Positions 922 through 41,897 of a DNA stretch of 64,000 nucleotides are shown here, in pieces. Source of the stretch: a virus (taxonomy: Duplodnaviria; Caudoviricetes); IMG/VR virus record IMGVR_UViG_3300028591_000084. One strand, given 5' to 3'. The notes beneath the pieces were generated by a model, which was not told where the DNA came from, made no database searches, and saw only the letters and a list, made by a program, of their open reading frames with translations. A program made the translations under genes and the position numbers. Every line of letters begins with the position of its first letter. Position 1 is the first letter of the stretch.

Positions 922-2265
922 TTAGAAGGGAGCCTCTGAACTACCAGATCCACCAAACCCACTAGCAAAAGAGGGTTGAGTGAACGGTGCCTTTCTTACT
1001 TCTTGGCTCTTCTGTTGTTGTTGACCGCCATTATCTGGAGCCATAGGAGCGCCAGAAATAGGATCAAGATGACTAGCTGCTGGGTTCTGGAAGGGATTCG
1101 TATTATTTTCTACGATCCTTTGACTATTCTCGTTGGTTACGAAGTTATTTCCTCCACCGAAACCTCCAGCCCAAGAACCTTGACCCTGCTGTTGCATAGC
1201 TTCACGAGCCATATCAGCGAGAATTGGGTCATTTGTCTCTACACCACCAGCATTAGTGGGCTTCTGATGAGCCAATACTGTTTGATTAGTAGCTTCAATT
1301 GCTTCTTCAATACTTGTTCCGCTTTCCTTAGCCAGTCTCGTTTTAGCAAGAATATTTGTCATATAATCAATAGCCTCACGAATTAGATTTCTATTGAAAA
1401 GACGAGCCTGATCGGCAGGAACATCATCATCCTCTCTATTAGCTTGCCAACCGAGGAACAGTTTTACAGGATTTTGCATGATTTGAGCATCTTCCTCTGG
1501 AATTACTACATCCTTGAGATATTGGCCAGCATTAAGAGAGTGTTGAACAGAGATACTAAAGCCCGGAGAGTCTGACTTACTAATACTGAAAATCAGAAAT
1601 CCCTTACGACCGGATAGCTCTCTGTTGTAGATGTCGTTAACCCATTCAGAATCACCCATACCACTGGTCAAGTTAATATCAGAAATATTATTACCAATAA
1701 TATCGGGGAATCCTTTACTAGTTACTACAAGAAGACCACTAAAGTTCTGCCTAATAGGATTGCGAGAATCACCAAGACCCCAATAATTCAATACACGGGC
1801 CATAACTAGGGTGTAACACTTTCTACGAATCAAACCACCAATAGTTGGATCCATAGCTTTATTTCTCACATCAAGTTCCTTATACAACTCTTCATAAATC
1901 TGATAAGCTTGATCAAGTAACTCTTCATCAGCAGCTGTAAGGCTAGAAACCTCACGGCCGGTTGAAGGATCCTTAATTGTATAAGCACTCTTAGGCAAAA
2001 GTTTGATCCAGGCAGAATAAGTCTGCTCTGTTCCATCACTCATCACATTTCGACGGGGCATCTTAATCTCTCTCGTATTCTGGAGGACAACGAAAGGAAA
2101 ATCGTTAATCACACTAGTCAACGGGAGGAGCTGATACTTGCCAAAATTGCTTTTTGCATTAGTAAAAATAGTCTCCACTGTACGACGCTTCACAAACTGT
2201 TTCTTCTGTTTTGTAGGTGAAATTGTCTGAAGTTTTTCCAAAAACGAATCTACATTCTGAATCAT
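922..2265 (-). CDS. hypothetical protein, possibly single-stranded DNA-binding protein
   Basis: 447-aa ORF with a low-complexity Gly/Gln C-terminal tail ending EAPF (SSB-like tip). It sits beside the exonuclease and has its own promoter motif at 2341-2361. Confidence 0.4.
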   Translation of the reverse strand: MIQNVDSFLEKLQTISPTKQKKQFVKRRTVETIFTNAKSNFGKYQLLPLTSVINDFPFVVLQNTREIKMPRRNVMSDGTEQTYSAWIKLLPKSAYTIKDPSTGREVSSLTAADEELLDQAYQIYEELYKELDVRNKAMDPTIGGLIRRKCYTLVMARVLNYWGLGDSRNPIRQNFSGLLVVTSKGFPDIIGNNISDINLTSGMGDSEWVNDIYNRELSGRKGFLIFSISKSDSPGFSISVQHSLNAGQYLKDVVIPEEDAQIMQNPVKLFLGWQANREDDDVPADQARLFNRNLIREAIDYMTNILAKTRLAKESGTSIEEAIEATNQTVLAHQKPTNAGGVETNDPILADMAREAMQQQGQGSWAGGFGGGNNFVTNENSQRIVENNTNPFQNPAASHLDPISGAPMAPDNGGQQQQKSQEVRKAPFTQPSFASGFGGSGSSEAPF

Positions 2266-2361: not shown

Positions 2362-2455
2362 ACGTTAGGTAACTTTTTTACATTTCAGAAAGAAAAATTG
2401 AGAAAGCAATATTATACTTTCTCTGTTTGATTTTTGACGAGATTTCAAGGGAAGT

Positions 2456-2490
2456 AAAAAAAAAAGGTCCAGGATTTTACTCCTAGACCT
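2456..2490 (-). terminator. intrinsic terminator closing the tRNA / DIP1984-like / ncRNA unit
   Basis: Minus strand AGGTCTAGGA-GTAAAA-TCCTGGACCT followed by a long T run. Confidence 0.75.
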
Positions 2491-2500
2491 AAAACACTCA

Positions 2501-2804
2501 ACTAAGCAGCCTTGACGATGAGGCCGAGGGTACAACTGCAAAACCTCTACACTGGTTTGTGTACGTCGTTGAACCAAGGATTTTATCTATCTTTGATCTT
2601 TCGTCTTTCATCTTTGATAATAAAAATCTTTGATCTTTGATCTTTTCATCTTTGAACTTTCAGCTTTAAGGTAAAATTACATCTGAAACATATGGAATGT
2701 AACAAATCTAACTATTAATTCCGCTTAGTTTAATCCTAATAAGAAATCTACCTTTTTAGCCTCTAGTAGAAAGAGAGCGTTATTTTTAGCCTCTTTCGCT
2801 TAGT
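2501..2804 (-). ncRNA. candidate structured ncRNA with AAAGNNN heptamer array
   Basis: 5' ACUAAGC (2804-2798) pairs with 3' GCUUAGU (2507-2501). Ten AAAGNNN units at 2588-2667. 3' domain has CCUUG/CAAGG, GACG/CGUC and UACAC/GUGUA stems. Confidence 0.6.
2588..2667 (-). repeat. tandem 7-nt repeat AAAGNNN x10 (6+4)
   Basis: AAAGCTG AAAGTTC AAAGATG (A)AAAGATC AAAGATC AAAGATT -TTTATTATC- AAAGATG AAAGACG AAAGATC AAAGATA. Confidence 0.9.
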
Positions 2805-2812
2805 AAATATTT

Positions 2813-3436
2813 TTATATCTCAATTTTTGTGGTGCTATTGCTTTCTGACAGGGCATAGTCAATATTAGAGTTGAAATCCTCAATATACTCTTCCAGATCC
2901 TTGATCATCTTGTTAATATTGCAGGGATCAACCATAGCCACCTCCTTGCTCTTTTCAATATACCTTTCAGCCTCCTCTTTTGCGGCGGCCTTATTTTTAT
3001 CGCTGGTGGCGTCTATTCCACTTATCAGTCTCTCTACTTGAAGGTCATTCTCCCTCAAGGCTTTGTCAAAATCCTCAGTAGCACTCAAAGCTTGTGCCTT
3101 TAGCTTCTTGAGAATCATCATCTTGTATTCGATGAGATTCTTCTTGTTCAGGGCTTCCTGAATAGTCATCTCCTCGTTACAGACTGTTATTGTCGTAATG
3201 CTATTTGACTTATCAATAGCACACTTTATGGCATTGATCCTCTCATAAAGATCCATAACGCTTTGATATCTTTCCTTAGCTTGAGAGATGAAATCCTCCT
3301 TCTTAATTGAAGAATAAGGACTTCTCAGCTTAGTACCATGAGATACAGCAACGATGTTCATATCGTTCACTTCTTTTGTAACTCTCGCTTTTAACAGTTT
3401 CAACTCTGCTAATGCTCTAGTAATTGTTAGTTCCAT
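2813..3436 (-). CDS. coiled-coil protein, DIP1984-like family
   Basis: N-terminal ITRALAELKLLKAR, central IDKSN...MTIQEAL and C-terminal IDYALSESNSTTKIEI resemble DIP1984-family proteins. Recognised from memory, not searched. Confidence 0.55.
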   Translation of the reverse strand: MELTITRALAELKLLKARVTKEVNDMNIVAVSHGTKLRSPYSSIKKEDFISQAKERYQSVMDLYERINAIKCAIDKSNSITTITVCNEEMTIQEALNKKNLIEYKMMILKKLKAQALSATEDFDKALRENDLQVERLISGIDATSDKNKAAAKEEAERYIEKSKEVAMVDPCNINKMIKDLEEYIEDFNSNIDYALSESNSTTKIEI

Positions 3437-3476
3437 AAACTTTAAAAAATTAATTAATATCTTTAATATAAGTTTG

Positions 3477-3547
3477 TTGGGCCAGGAGGAGTCGAACCCC
3501 CATCCTTAGAGCCAAATTCTAATGTAATTCCGTTATACCATGGTCCA
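3477..3547 (-). tRNA. tRNA-Gln(UUG)
   Basis: Cloverleaf: acceptor TGGACCA/TGGCCCA (one mismatch), anticodon arm TTAGA-ATTTGGC-TCTAA, T arm GGGGG-TTCGACT-CCTCC. No encoded CCA. Confidence 0.9.
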
Positions 3548-4107: not shown

Positions 4108-4752
4108 TTATTCTTCGTTTCTGAGATCTCTAAGTCTGAAATATCTATCTACACTATGATTATGAGTAATGTCATGAACATCATATTCTTTCGAATTATC
4201 TCGATCATAGGAAATAATAAAATCTTCAAAATGAACATAAGAGTCTCTCAAAACTTTCTTCAATGTTTCATTCTCTACATACTTCGAACTAGTACCTGGC
4301 TCAACTTCAGCCAAAGTAAGATGTGGCGTATAAGTAGGAAATTTTGATTTAATCTTGTAATACTCCGATAAGGATTTATTTAATTTACTCATTGAAGTAT
4401 ACCAAAAGTTATCATGTTTCAATTTCAAAACTACATAACCACTATCATTTTCAAAATTATCAAGTTCAAATAGATCAAGCACGGGGACAGCATTTTCCTC
4501 AAAACTCTTCTGTCTCTCTAGGTAATCAAATATAGATTCTTTGACAGGAGGATTTGATTTCCACCAACACTTATCAATAGTATCAAAAATATCACCTTTC
4601 TCTAGGAACTTATCAGCAGCATAAAGAACTGTGATATGAGAATCAAACTCAATTCCAGTATCCTTCAGATCAATTTCATCAAAAATAACATTAAGAGATA
4701 CTGGAGTTTCTAAATTCGCTGCTAGCATTAAACAAGAAGTTATACTTTCCAT
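4108..4752 (-). CDS. 2H phosphoesterase, T4 gp57B/Acb1-like
   Basis: Two HxT motifs, SHITVLY and YTPHLTLAE, with spacing typical of 2H phosphoesterases. Confidence 0.7.
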   Translation of the reverse strand: MESITSCLMLAANLETPVSLNVIFDEIDLKDTGIEFDSHITVLYAADKFLEKGDIFDTIDKCWWKSNPPVKESIFDYLERQKSFEENAVPVLDLFELDNFENDSGYVVLKLKHDNFWYTSMSKLNKSLSEYYKIKSKFPTYTPHLTLAEVEPGTSSKYVENETLKKVLRDSYVHFEDFIISYDRDNSKEYDVHDITHNHSVDRYFRLRDLRNEE

Positions 4753-40308: not shown

Positions 40309-41337
40309 ATGCAGAAAAAACCGAGAATTTTAAGTATTGATCTGGGATATAGTAGTGTAAAGTATAGTTACTTTGATGAAAATGGACTCCTTGTTAATGA
40401 GAAGTTTATTTCGTCTGTTGCAAAATTACCTGAACAACCTTTAATGGCTGATCAGAACAGCGTTTTTAGTCTTAATGGTTGTTATTATGTCCTAGCAGAA
40501 AGCGCATTAAAGTTGGATCGTAGTCTCTTAATGCCACTCGAGTCCTATAATGATATGAAAGAGGTTTACCCGGTCGTTATTTCCTATGTCCTTAAAAAGT
40601 TAGGAAATCAAAATTGGAGTAAAGTATGTCTTGGACTGAGTATGGCATTCTCTGATAAAGCTGATGACTTGCTTGATTATCTCTATACAGCACTTCTTAT
40701 AGATAGATCAAACAATTATTTCCTTGTCTATCCTCAAGGATTGGCTTGTCGATATTGTTATGATACCTATAAAGAGAATCCTAGAGATCCCGCAGTTCAT
40801 AGTTCAAGTAATACTCTTAGTAATGCTGTCATTTGTGATGGTGGATTTTTGAGTTTGGATCTTTGTGCAATTATTGATCACAAGTCCGCAGCTGGACAAA
40901 CAATAGGTCTTGAAAATACTGGGGTCTTGAATATTAGTAGAGAACTTGCTAACTATATTTATAAAAATTATGAGTATAGAATCAGTATTAAAGAAGCTCA
41001 AGTGGCTGTTGATAGCAGACAGATTGTAAGAAGAGGAAGAACTATTGATCTGACTGATATTGTTGATAAGCTTTCTAAACAATATTTGATTAGTGTTCTT
41101 AACCTAATTGAGGAAAAATATTCTAATTACCTTGATGTTGTTGAAGGAATTTTATTTGTTGGTGGAATTTCTTACTTTATGTCGAGGGCTTTAGAAGATC
41201 CTGAATTTTGTAACGAAGTTGAGAAACACTACCCAGTAAGCTTTATCCACTGCCCGAAAGAGCTTGGAGAATATTATAATTCCATTGGATATTTATTGCT
41301 TACTGAGGATCTACTTAAGAAAGGTAAGATCCAGTAA
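40309..41337 (+). CDS. ParM/StbA-like actin-fold ATPase
   Basis: Phosphate-1 SIDLGYSSVK, connect YPQG, phosphate-2 ICDGGFLSLD, adenosine FVGG and a terminal NSIGY. Confidence 0.8.
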   Translation: MQKKPRILSIDLGYSSVKYSYFDENGLLVNEKFISSVAKLPEQPLMADQNSVFSLNGCYYVLAESALKLDRSLLMPLESYNDMKEVYPVVISYVLKKLGNQNWSKVCLGLSMAFSDKADDLLDYLYTALLIDRSNNYFLVYPQGLACRYCYDTYKENPRDPAVHSSSNTLSNAVICDGGFLSLDLCAIIDHKSAAGQTIGLENTGVLNISRELANYIYKNYEYRISIKEAQVAVDSRQIVRRGRTIDLTDIVDKLSKQYLISVLNLIEEKYSNYLDVVEGILFVGGISYFMSRALEDPEFCNEVEKHYPVSFIHCPKELGEYYNSIGYLLLTEDLLKKGKIQ

Positions 41338-41399
41338 AAACAGGAGAAGATATGATTAATTGTAGTCATATCTTTTCTTTTATTGTATGATTGAATTAA

Positions 41400-41897
41400 A
41401 TGGCAATTACTAAGACGATAAAAGGTTCTGTATGGGTAAGTGGAAATCAACTCGTACAAAACCAAACGCTGGTTACTCCTAATGGTATGGGAGAGAATAC
41501 AGTTGTTTTGATTAATGATATTTGGGAAGATCTCCTCTCCTCTGAGTCGACTGCTAAGAGGGAGAGAAACTATTGGTACTGGGAAGTACAGCAAACTAAT
41601 CTAGAAGATGAAGAGGTAACAGTTAGATTTGAATGTCCAAAGCCAAAAGACGGTCTGTTGGATCAATACGAATTGGATCCTAATAATGCCGTGTCTGATT
41701 GGGCTAAATATTGGGTTGGAAAATATAAGGAGGTGTCAGATAGGTATGCAGACTCTTGCACTATTCAGCCTAAGTCAGTAGTGTTCCAATCCGCTGATTT
41801 GGTAGATTATGATGACGGACATATGTATACTGTTGATGAATTAACGGTTCCTAGAAATAATCTCGGAGATATTAAGTCTCTCATTACAAAATTTTGA
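41400..41897 (+). CDS. hypothetical protein
   Basis: 165-aa ORF followed by a terminator. Confidence 0.7.
   Translation: MAITKTIKGSVWVSGNQLVQNQTLVTPNGMGENTVVLINDIWEDLLSSESTAKRERNYWYWEVQQTNLEDEEVTVRFECPKPKDGLLDQYELDPNNAVSDWAKYWVGKYKEVSDRYADSCTIQPKSVVFQSADLVDYDDGHMYTVDELTVPRNNLGDIKSLITKF

Follow-up and report, generated by a model that had tools for sequence, protein, structure and literature searches.

Gene and RNA at the locus

We analysed a locus in a 64,000-nucleotide (nt) stretch of tailed phage DNA (Caudoviricetes; IMG/VR record IMGVR_UViG_3300028591_000084), hereafter called the window, in which the gene for a 207-residue protein related to T5.085 of phage T5 is directly followed by a structured RNA of about 300 nt carrying ten AAAG heptamers. 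An earlier reading made from the letters alone (the original prediction) had proposed that gene and RNA form a ribonucleoprotein system. The features of the locus are given below in 5' to 3' order of the minus strand, where A2 denotes an alignment of 33 sequences in which MAFFT misaligned the row of the window at P6; this part was read by eye.

3476..3547, minus strand: tRNA-Gln, 40 nt upstream of the 207-residue protein gene (tRNA search)
2813..3436, minus strand: gene for the 207-residue T5.085-like protein, phrog_1491 (open reading frame, profile match to phrog_1491 and confident structure model)
2501..2812, minus strand: complete structured RNA, from just past the stop codon to the 3' strand of P1 (folding z score, homologues and covariation)
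2798..2804, minus strand: 5' strand of P1, ACUAAGC, pairing with GCUUAGU at 2501-2507 (8 pairs, 6 of them changed on both sides; 88% paired)
2789..2793, minus strand: 5' strand of P2, GAGGC, pairing with GCCUC at 2520-2524; a pseudoknot through the crossing P5 (5/5 pairs compensatory; 100% paired, n=33)
2747..2776, minus strand: 5' H-type pseudoknot (S1 94% paired; S2 checked alignment-free)
2668..2746, minus strand: variable hairpin region (A2, columns 96-225)
2625..2667, minus strand: heptad block 1, six AAAG-H-U-N units (Tandem Repeats Finder, logo)
2616..2624, minus strand: U-rich spacer separating the heptad blocks (A2)
2588..2615, minus strand: heptad block 2, four AAAG-H-U-N units leading into the conserved AGAUAAAAUCC (A2, logo)
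2575..2579, minus strand: 5' strand of P5, CCUUG, pairing with CAAGG at 2510-2514 (97% paired in A2)
2548..2563, minus strand: P6 hairpin, UACAC/GUGUA (97% paired)
2526..2547, minus strand: P7 hairpin, GAGG/CCUC, with the 14-nt loop UUUUGCAGUUGUAC (93% paired; loop columns invariant, conserved in the rumen clade)
2455..2490, minus strand: intrinsic terminator, 10-bp stem and U-run (hairpin search, which placed hairpin and U-run at 2490-2465; a terminator hairpin also follows the RNA in relatives)

The coordinates, closing ends and spacing of the original prediction hold on the minus strand. The TAA stop codon of the gene lies at 2815-2813, ACUAAGC starts 8 nt downstream, and the ends of the RNA element of roughly 300-305 nt are paired as ACUAAGC (2804-2798) and GCUUAGU (2507-2501). 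The duplicated AGAGGCUAAAAA (2794-2783 and 2764-2753), the second AACUAAGC (2730-2723) and the terminator after the RNA were likewise found where they had been placed. A second terminator-like hairpin lies 40 nt past the first (2400-2423, minus strand). For the minus strand, folding gives -95.3 kcal/mol (z = -5.4) and pairs the ends, compared with z = -2.7 for the much weaker plus strand, and the covariance model gave a single match in the whole window.

By read search, the DNA belongs to a jumbo phage of the rumen, and contigs extending over gene and RNA are found in rumen metatranscriptome assemblies from several studies. One RNA-library contig of 932 nt corresponds to positions 3426-2495 and thus contains the gene and the RNA and nothing further. 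Because another such contig covers the tRNA-Gln, the gene and the RNA, all three are probably part of one transcription unit. RNA-library contigs from three studies end at 2495, 2511 and 2528 without loose ends and none covers 2250-2494; these ends near 2495-2528 give at most a weak hint at the 3' end of the RNA.

Conservation of the gene-RNA pair

About 200 loci were collected via the protein from metagenomes, IMG/VR and genomes (single loci are cited below by L numbers), and in most of them the RNA follows the phrog_1491 homologue on the same strand. Loci with the RNA include PVP-SE1/rV5-like phages, T5 in diverged form, jumbo phages and solitary islands in Bacillaceae and Clostridia chromosomes. 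In relatives whose proteins are 53-56% identical, the 400-560-nt gap after the gene contains the same element, and the pair of gene and RNA persists across phages with proteins only about 30% identical. With nhmmer, 100 of 173 sources proved to contain the 3' domain of the RNA, in each case downstream of the gene and on its strand. A covariance model of the 3' domain (R1) recovered it from 74 of 100 more distant sources, again always downstream on the gene's strand, with one extra weak match on the opposite strand in L191 that is probably false, and a further model (R2) added about 30 of 48 additional sources, including PVP-SE1 and rV5-like phages.

Searching from the RNA side led to the same pairing. 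When IMG/VR was scanned for four AAAGNUN units, 80 loci came up. Seven of them carry the 3' domain as judged by covariance model, and all seven have a gene of the family directly upstream; the remaining 73 are unrelated simple repeats. Two loci from exact-motif scans (L010, L011) have neither the gene nor, by covariance model, the RNA. A single-sequence peptide scan of IMG/VR found nothing, and neither did a blastn search of the phage collection with the RNA; the family is too diverged for a DNA search. Each genome has one RNA and no array, and in phages the module usually lies within or at the end of a tRNA cluster. Gene and RNA are linked, and the tie to the adjacent protein put forward by the original prediction is borne out by their co-occurrence in very distant phages and in solitary chromosomal pairs as well as by the matches obtained from the RNA side.

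In case of phage T5, a 360-nt gap that is unannotated in nearly all of about 440 T5-like GenBank records contains eight AAAG motifs in 110 nt at the same offset. The fold of this gap (z = -6.9) is closed by a helix of 20 bp, and by eye the GAAAG junction, both pseudoknot stems and P5 can be recognized; model R2 gave a marginal match on T5-like phages (E 0.87) at the expected place. A different locus about 1.6 kb away, at 40848-41566 of the T5 genome (L172, NC_005859), is annotated as rnaX, a 'stable RNA with unknown functions'. In a CRISPRi-ART knock-down screen T5.085 was rated 'Not Fit' (PMC11879866, supplementary file 16). This class indicates that T5.085 is accessory in the laboratory and also speaks against a role in the tail fibre; the label 'tail fiber protein' of phrog_1491 is unsupported by anything we observed.

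In Bacillaceae and Clostridia chromosomes, a solitary gene and RNA stand amid unrelated genes (chemotaxis receptor, FIST, GNAT, TetR, Rok), and around the chromosomal copies examined neither phage genes nor a conserved third gene were found. The small upstream open reading frames of two Bacillus loci are unrelated to each other, so that there is no conserved third component. The two parts therefore form a self-sufficient unit.

Structure of the RNA

Examination of the regions downstream of homologues, a check suggested by the original prediction, revealed conserved heptads together with covarying helices. Seven helices covary in A2 (P1, P2, S1, S2, P5, P6 and P7). Across their 35 pairs, 91.6% of cells are paired, compared with 35-49% when the partners are slid by 1-3 columns, and 25 of the 35 pairs show compensatory changes on both sides; none of 500 shuffles matched the observed values. 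The RNA thus is a genuine structured RNA, as had been claimed. P1 and P2 connect its two ends. P2 is paired in 33 of 33 sequences with 3-5 pair types per position and crosses P5, which results in one pseudoknot. P5 itself is 98.8% paired in the wider family (n=66, model-fitted alignment), with four of its five pairs compensatory. The second pseudoknot is formed by S1, in which UCUCU (2776-2772) pairs with AGAGG (2764-2760), and S2, in which the S1 loop UCUACU (2770-2765) pairs with GGUAGA (2752-2747). S2 was examined alignment-free because A2 is misaligned there; 29 of 33 sequences have 6-7 contiguous pairs of differing sequence, the mean being 6.45 compared with 4.69 after shuffling.

Further, the junction GAAA (2797-2794) after P1 is universally conserved, including T5 and Bacillus, where GGCUG ahead of the 3' strand of P1 is conserved as well. 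For the conserved P7 loop no pairing partner above chance was found within the window. The RNA is a conserved, covarying double-pseudoknot structure whose closed core presents a single-stranded purine-rich loop of about 80 nt that bears the ten heptads in two blocks. The original prediction had also envisaged a conformational switch in which AACUAAGC serves as alternative partner of the 3' strand. This did not hold up, as the alternative partner is present in one of 33 sequences and has no counterpart in the other 32.

The variable region (2668-2746) differs in length among relatives and can contain an entire tRNA gene. Complete genes for tRNA-Gln (L174, 3204-3280) and tRNA-Ile (L201, 3392-3464) are nested in it, between the 5' pseudoknot domain and the heptads. 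This arrangement bears on the reading that the RNA is a cis-acting 3' untranslated region whose structure stabilizes or autoregulates the upstream mRNA, with TRAP- or gp32-like feedback on decay or termination and no function as a particle. Such a role would fit a start of the RNA about 5-25 nt past the stop codon, seen in every locus read, as well as the closing terminator and the RNA-library contig that covers gene and RNA. However, processing of the nested tRNA would sever the RNA from the mRNA and leave two halves joined only by P1 and P2, for which a trans-acting particle fits better than a simple 3' untranslated region. Protection of a 3' end would also need far less than a double pseudoknot of 300 nt in which junctions and loops are conserved, and the putative switch is not conserved. 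Taken together, we consider this reading rather unlikely.

The two regulatory systems invoked here resemble the present RNA in part. The trp leader of Bacillus shares with it regularly spaced short single-strand motifs. That leader wraps around TRAP, a ring of 11 beta-sandwich subunits with a site on each; the (G/U)AG triplets bound are in the 5' leader, and binding controls termination, whereas the present RNA lies 3' of its gene, and motif and protein fold are unrelated. Attenuation of the TRAP type involves conserved alternative structures, which are missing here given the single sequence with an alternative partner. The operator of T4 gene 32 likewise consists of a pseudoknot followed by an unstructured A-rich tract of repeated short motifs. 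Gene 32 protein is a single-strand DNA-binding protein that coats this tract cooperatively with a site size of about 7 nt. However, that operator is a 5' leader acting on the ribosome-binding site of its own gene, whereas the present RNA is located 3' of the gene and has a circle-like closed fold.

Heptad repeats

All ten AAAG units announced by the original prediction are present at 7-nt spacing, six at 2667-2625 and four at 2615-2588 on either side of the U-rich spacer (2624-2616); Tandem Repeats Finder reports a period of 7 and 9.9 copies (2589-2660). Three AAAG at exact 7-nt spacing (AAAGNNNAAAGNNNAAAG) occur four times in the 64 kb, all within this RNA, with 0.05 occurrences expected. The last three bases of the unit had been described as variable, which is correct for position 7 and too broad for the other two: in the logo A-A-A-G-H-U-N (n=240 units) U occupies position 6 in 97% of units and G seldom occurs at position 5, with a predominant spacing of 7. 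The logo is unchanged in 63 distant loci (U 87%, predominant spacings 7 and 14). The rumen clade has ten slots (6 + 4) throughout, some of them degenerate, and in some relatives (L050, L061, L064) the U-rich spacer holds a hairpin insertion. Six of the seven positions are constrained, about 1.5 positions per heptad are free, and since the constrained positions have no complementary partner, recognition by a protein fits better than base pairing.

In L117 and L124, a count of 18 AAAG stems from an unrelated purine-rich simple repeat placed between gene and RNA. This GAAAAG/GGAAAA-type repeat (L117 2100-2500, also in L124) is flanked by an inverted repeat of about 70 nt and looks like a separate inserted element.

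The repeats could in principle act at the DNA level, as iterons to which a DNA-binding protein attaches, perhaps at an origin. Several GATC sites in the repeats of the window would suit this idea, but GATC is not kept across the heptad units in the logo, the purine strand is always the sense strand of the gene, and the repeats are enclosed by covarying RNA helices. Iterons are hence scarcely credible here.

The AAAGHUN motif is identical in phages of Proteobacteria, Bacillota and Bacteroidota, as would suit a universal ligand. The RNA might accordingly be a decoy or sponge: its ten AAAGHU sites would capture a conserved RNA-binding protein or nuclease of the host, such as an enzyme acting on A-rich single strands or tRNA anticodon loops, while the neighbouring protein would be a chaperone or have a separate role. 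The position of the module in tRNA clusters and the dispensability of the gene in the laboratory, a trait of many counter-defence genes, would be in keeping with this. However, a strict tie to one protein family that extends to chromosomes without phage context is unnecessary for a pure decoy, and AAAGHU is unlike the known sites of Hfq (A-R-N), CsrA (GGA) and TRAP (GAG/UAG). We regard a decoy, including one for the enzymes named, as unlikely though by no means far-fetched.

The encoded protein

The 207-residue protein belongs to phrog_1491, the profile of which it matches over residues 2-207 (E 6.3e-51). Homologues were detected by tblastn in 694 phage records, including T5 (T5.085), PVP-SE1 (gp082), rV5-like and Felix-like phages, and also in jumbo phages of Proteobacteria and Bacillus. 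A family profile search yielded 3459 clusters at 50% identity, nearly all of 205-215 residues. The confident AlphaFold2 model (predicted local distance difference test, pLDDT, 92) consists of five long helices and a small sheet of four short strands.

The original prediction had called the protein DIP1984-like. In terms of fold this is right. VIA-align against the DIP1984 protein structure 3kdq gave Z 10.0 with 150 of 152 residues aligned (rmsd 7.3, 19% identity), Foldseek gave E 0.017 at probability 1.0, and 3kdq is the only solved structure above the helical-bundle background, so that both proteins share the same overall fold. By sequence the protein falls outside the family: the NCBIfam model DIP1984 (NF038048) scores 19.9 bits, far under its cut-off of 70, in a partial match to residues 51-120 (E 6e-4), and no PDB entry was matched by sequence. 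The phage family is also about 60 residues longer, and no AAAG RNA follows the one true DIP1984 gene that was examined.

Predicting four copies together resulted in a symmetric dimer with an ipSAE interface score of 0.53, compared with 0.00 for the best control; the runs share at least 91% of contacts and the pLDDT of the partner is at least 81. Of 30 solved one-chain pairs, 20 attain an ipSAE of 0.53, as does 1 of 23 single chains; this calibration is only approximate here given the custom alignment and the four copies. The prediction supports self-association of the protein as a symmetric dimer. Basic residues R7, K13, R18, R66, K71 and K99 are conserved across the family.

A small two-part module found in phages and in isolated chromosomal islands, with a protein predicted to self-associate, also brings to mind a toxin-antitoxin-like pair, in which the free protein would be harmful, the RNA would sequester about ten copies of it and loss of the unstable RNA would set it free, following type III logic without homology. 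The fold resembles ClyA (Z 6.7) and XaxA (Z 6.4), weakly, non-significantly and within helical-bundle noise. Against such a pair, there is no PADLOC match and no Pfam nuclease match for the protein, no nuclease or membrane segment is apparent in its sequence, and hundreds of virulent phages maintain the gene although a suicide module would be of no obvious use to them. Order and unit size are also unlike those of ToxIN-type systems. Type III modules such as ToxIN and CptIN do combine a protein gene with a repetitive pseudoknot-forming RNA. They are found in bacteria and mimicked by phages; their toxin is an endoribonuclease that cleaves the ToxI-type repeats, which are 34-45 nt long and lie upstream of its gene. 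Here, the RNA is downstream and its units have 7 nt, so the system does not belong to this class and the type III antitoxin analogy of the original prediction finds no support. We judge a toxin-antitoxin-like function distinctly improbable.

A proposed multi-subunit ribonucleoprotein and the points against it

The reading we favour, to which we assign about an even chance, is a multi-subunit ribonucleoprotein in which the co-encoded protein coats the heptads of the RNA. The small helical protein (T5.085/phrog_1491) and the RNA of about 300 nt transcribed directly behind it would constitute a self-contained two-part module. The heptads would be periodic binding sites for the family of the 207-residue protein and would act as a register of about ten equivalent predicted sites. 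As the protein is predicted to form symmetric dimers, it might bind as perhaps five dimers, probably while leaving the ribosome beside its own 3' RNA. The product would be a defined multi-subunit particle with the folded core as cap or handle. Such a particle would most likely be an accessory factor in phage-host or phage-phage conflict, because T5 can do without the gene in the laboratory and because both virulent phages and isolated chromosomal islands harbour the module. Since the module sits in tRNA clusters, a link to tRNA biology is possible as well.

Several points weigh against this ribonucleoprotein. That the protein binds the RNA is something we infer, and the co-occurrence of both would also arise if the RNA merely controlled expression of its own gene. 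The protein has no recognizable RNA-binding domain by Pfam, Foldseek or VIA-align and is acidic (pI about 5.4, family median 5.6). Its predicted dimer is uninformative on assembly along the RNA. About seven loci with sufficient downstream sequence have no RNA match with R1 and R2, and membership of T5 is marginal, relying on the covariance model score and inspection by eye. Further, the support from RNA-library contigs is weak, as they can neither prove transcription nor set the ends of the RNA.

Comparison with VIPR and large phage RNAs

In design, the nearest analogue of the module is VIPR, a system of Vipr protein and vrRNA that is encoded by phages and sometimes by chromosomes (bioRxiv 10.64898/2026.04.26.720920; 10.64898/2026.04.26.720927). 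The vrRNAs comprise 9-16 units of 5 nt in which a fixed GGY (or related trinucleotide) alternates with NN (bioRxiv 10.64898/2026.04.26.720920; 10.64898/2026.04.26.720927). Both systems are carried by phages and some chromosomes, and in both, a conserved region with a pseudoknot lies next to roughly ten short tandem units, each combining fixed with free positions. Vipr protomers assemble into oligomers along the vrRNA repeats, as those of the present protein may do on the heptad RNA. Vipr is a RAMP/RRM protein (RRM core, G-loop, thumb), whereas the present protein is a helical DIP1984-like bundle and not a RAMP, as judged from the secondary structure of the AlphaFold2 model. The units are 5-nt GGY/NN in one case and 7-nt AAAGHUN in the other, and vrRNAs are about 100 nt long, arrayed and hypervariable, whereas the present RNA is about 300 nt long, closed over a long range, single-copy and not hypervariable. 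A RAMP effector, 5-nt units and hypervariable free positions are thus all absent, and the module is not a member of VIPR.

The likeness nevertheless raises the possibility of a noncontiguous guide of the VIPR kind, in which the protein would hold the fixed AAAG and U and expose positions 5 and 7 to read a gapped target. Apart from the shared layout, this would be consistent with the close pair L041/L046, in which the repeat zone accounts for 5 of about 8 differences. However, 1.5 free positions per unit are few, the free positions are not hypervariable in close relatives or among 23 distinct T5-like sequences, and neither an array nor a RAMP is present. Gapped matches (ten triplets, 0-4 skipped bases) were no better than with shuffled guides, in a very limited test that covered the 64-kb window. 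We therefore find such a guide very improbable. A broader version, in which the favoured ribonucleoprotein would be a second, independently evolved reader of a tandem-repeat code with a non-RAMP helical protein, seems to us a long shot. Polymerizing along the AAAG-x-U-x heptads, about ten protomers would display the other bases, or the surface of the assembly, for recognition of a specific nucleic acid or a target related to tRNA in conflicts between viruses or between virus and host.

ROOL and GOLLD of Rfam are likewise large, ornate, covarying RNAs, often located in phages beside tRNA genes, but they are not known to have a dedicated protein partner or a heptad tract, and no Rfam model matches the present RNA. 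In a search of Rfam 15 with the window, T5, PVP-SE1 and two relatives, only tRNAs reached the gathering score; below it, the highest-scoring match was to a snoRNA (21 bits vs 44) and is due to chance. In the searchable literature we found nothing on T5.085 or an AAAG-heptamer element and nothing relevant on DIP1984. No Rfam 15 family, T5-like GenBank annotation or searchable publication names the RNA or gives the protein a function, though unnamed candidates in computational catalogues of viral structured RNAs (one from 2023) may include it.

Flanking genes

Just downstream of the RNA's terminator lies an open reading frame of 447 residues (922-2265, minus strand), preceded directly upstream by an AT-rich ATAA-type simple repeat (2264-2312). 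It has no match in Pfam, PHROG or PADLOC, and its long Gly/Gln-rich C-terminal tail, ending in EAPF, recalls the acidic tip found in single-strand DNA-binding proteins. On the other side of the locus, a 214-residue protein with two H-x-T/S motifs (HITVLY, HLTLAE) adjoins RNA polymerase genes (4108-4752, minus strand). Based on these motifs, a weak Pfam match to 2'-5' RNA ligase/2H (E 0.004) and jumbo-phage homologues with a faint Acb1 flag, it is a possible 2H phosphodiesterase.

Conclusions

In conclusion, the element described here represents, in our assessment, a new class of RNA whose protein partner is new as well. It is a widespread class of large structured RNA with a dedicated partner from a protein family of 3459 clusters, and the module sits, largely unannotated, in the textbook phage T5. 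The closed double-pseudoknot scaffold with ten identical 7-nt sites is an unusual design that predicts a particle of fixed stoichiometry, and it provides a first functional lead for the DIP1984-like fold. Together with the recent discovery of VIPR, it suggests that the binding of oligomerizing proteins to RNAs with short-period repeats may be a broader phage theme. If the module should prove to be a second reader of a tandem-repeat code, T5 and hundreds of other phages would carry an unrecognized RNA-guided or RNA-scaffolded effector.

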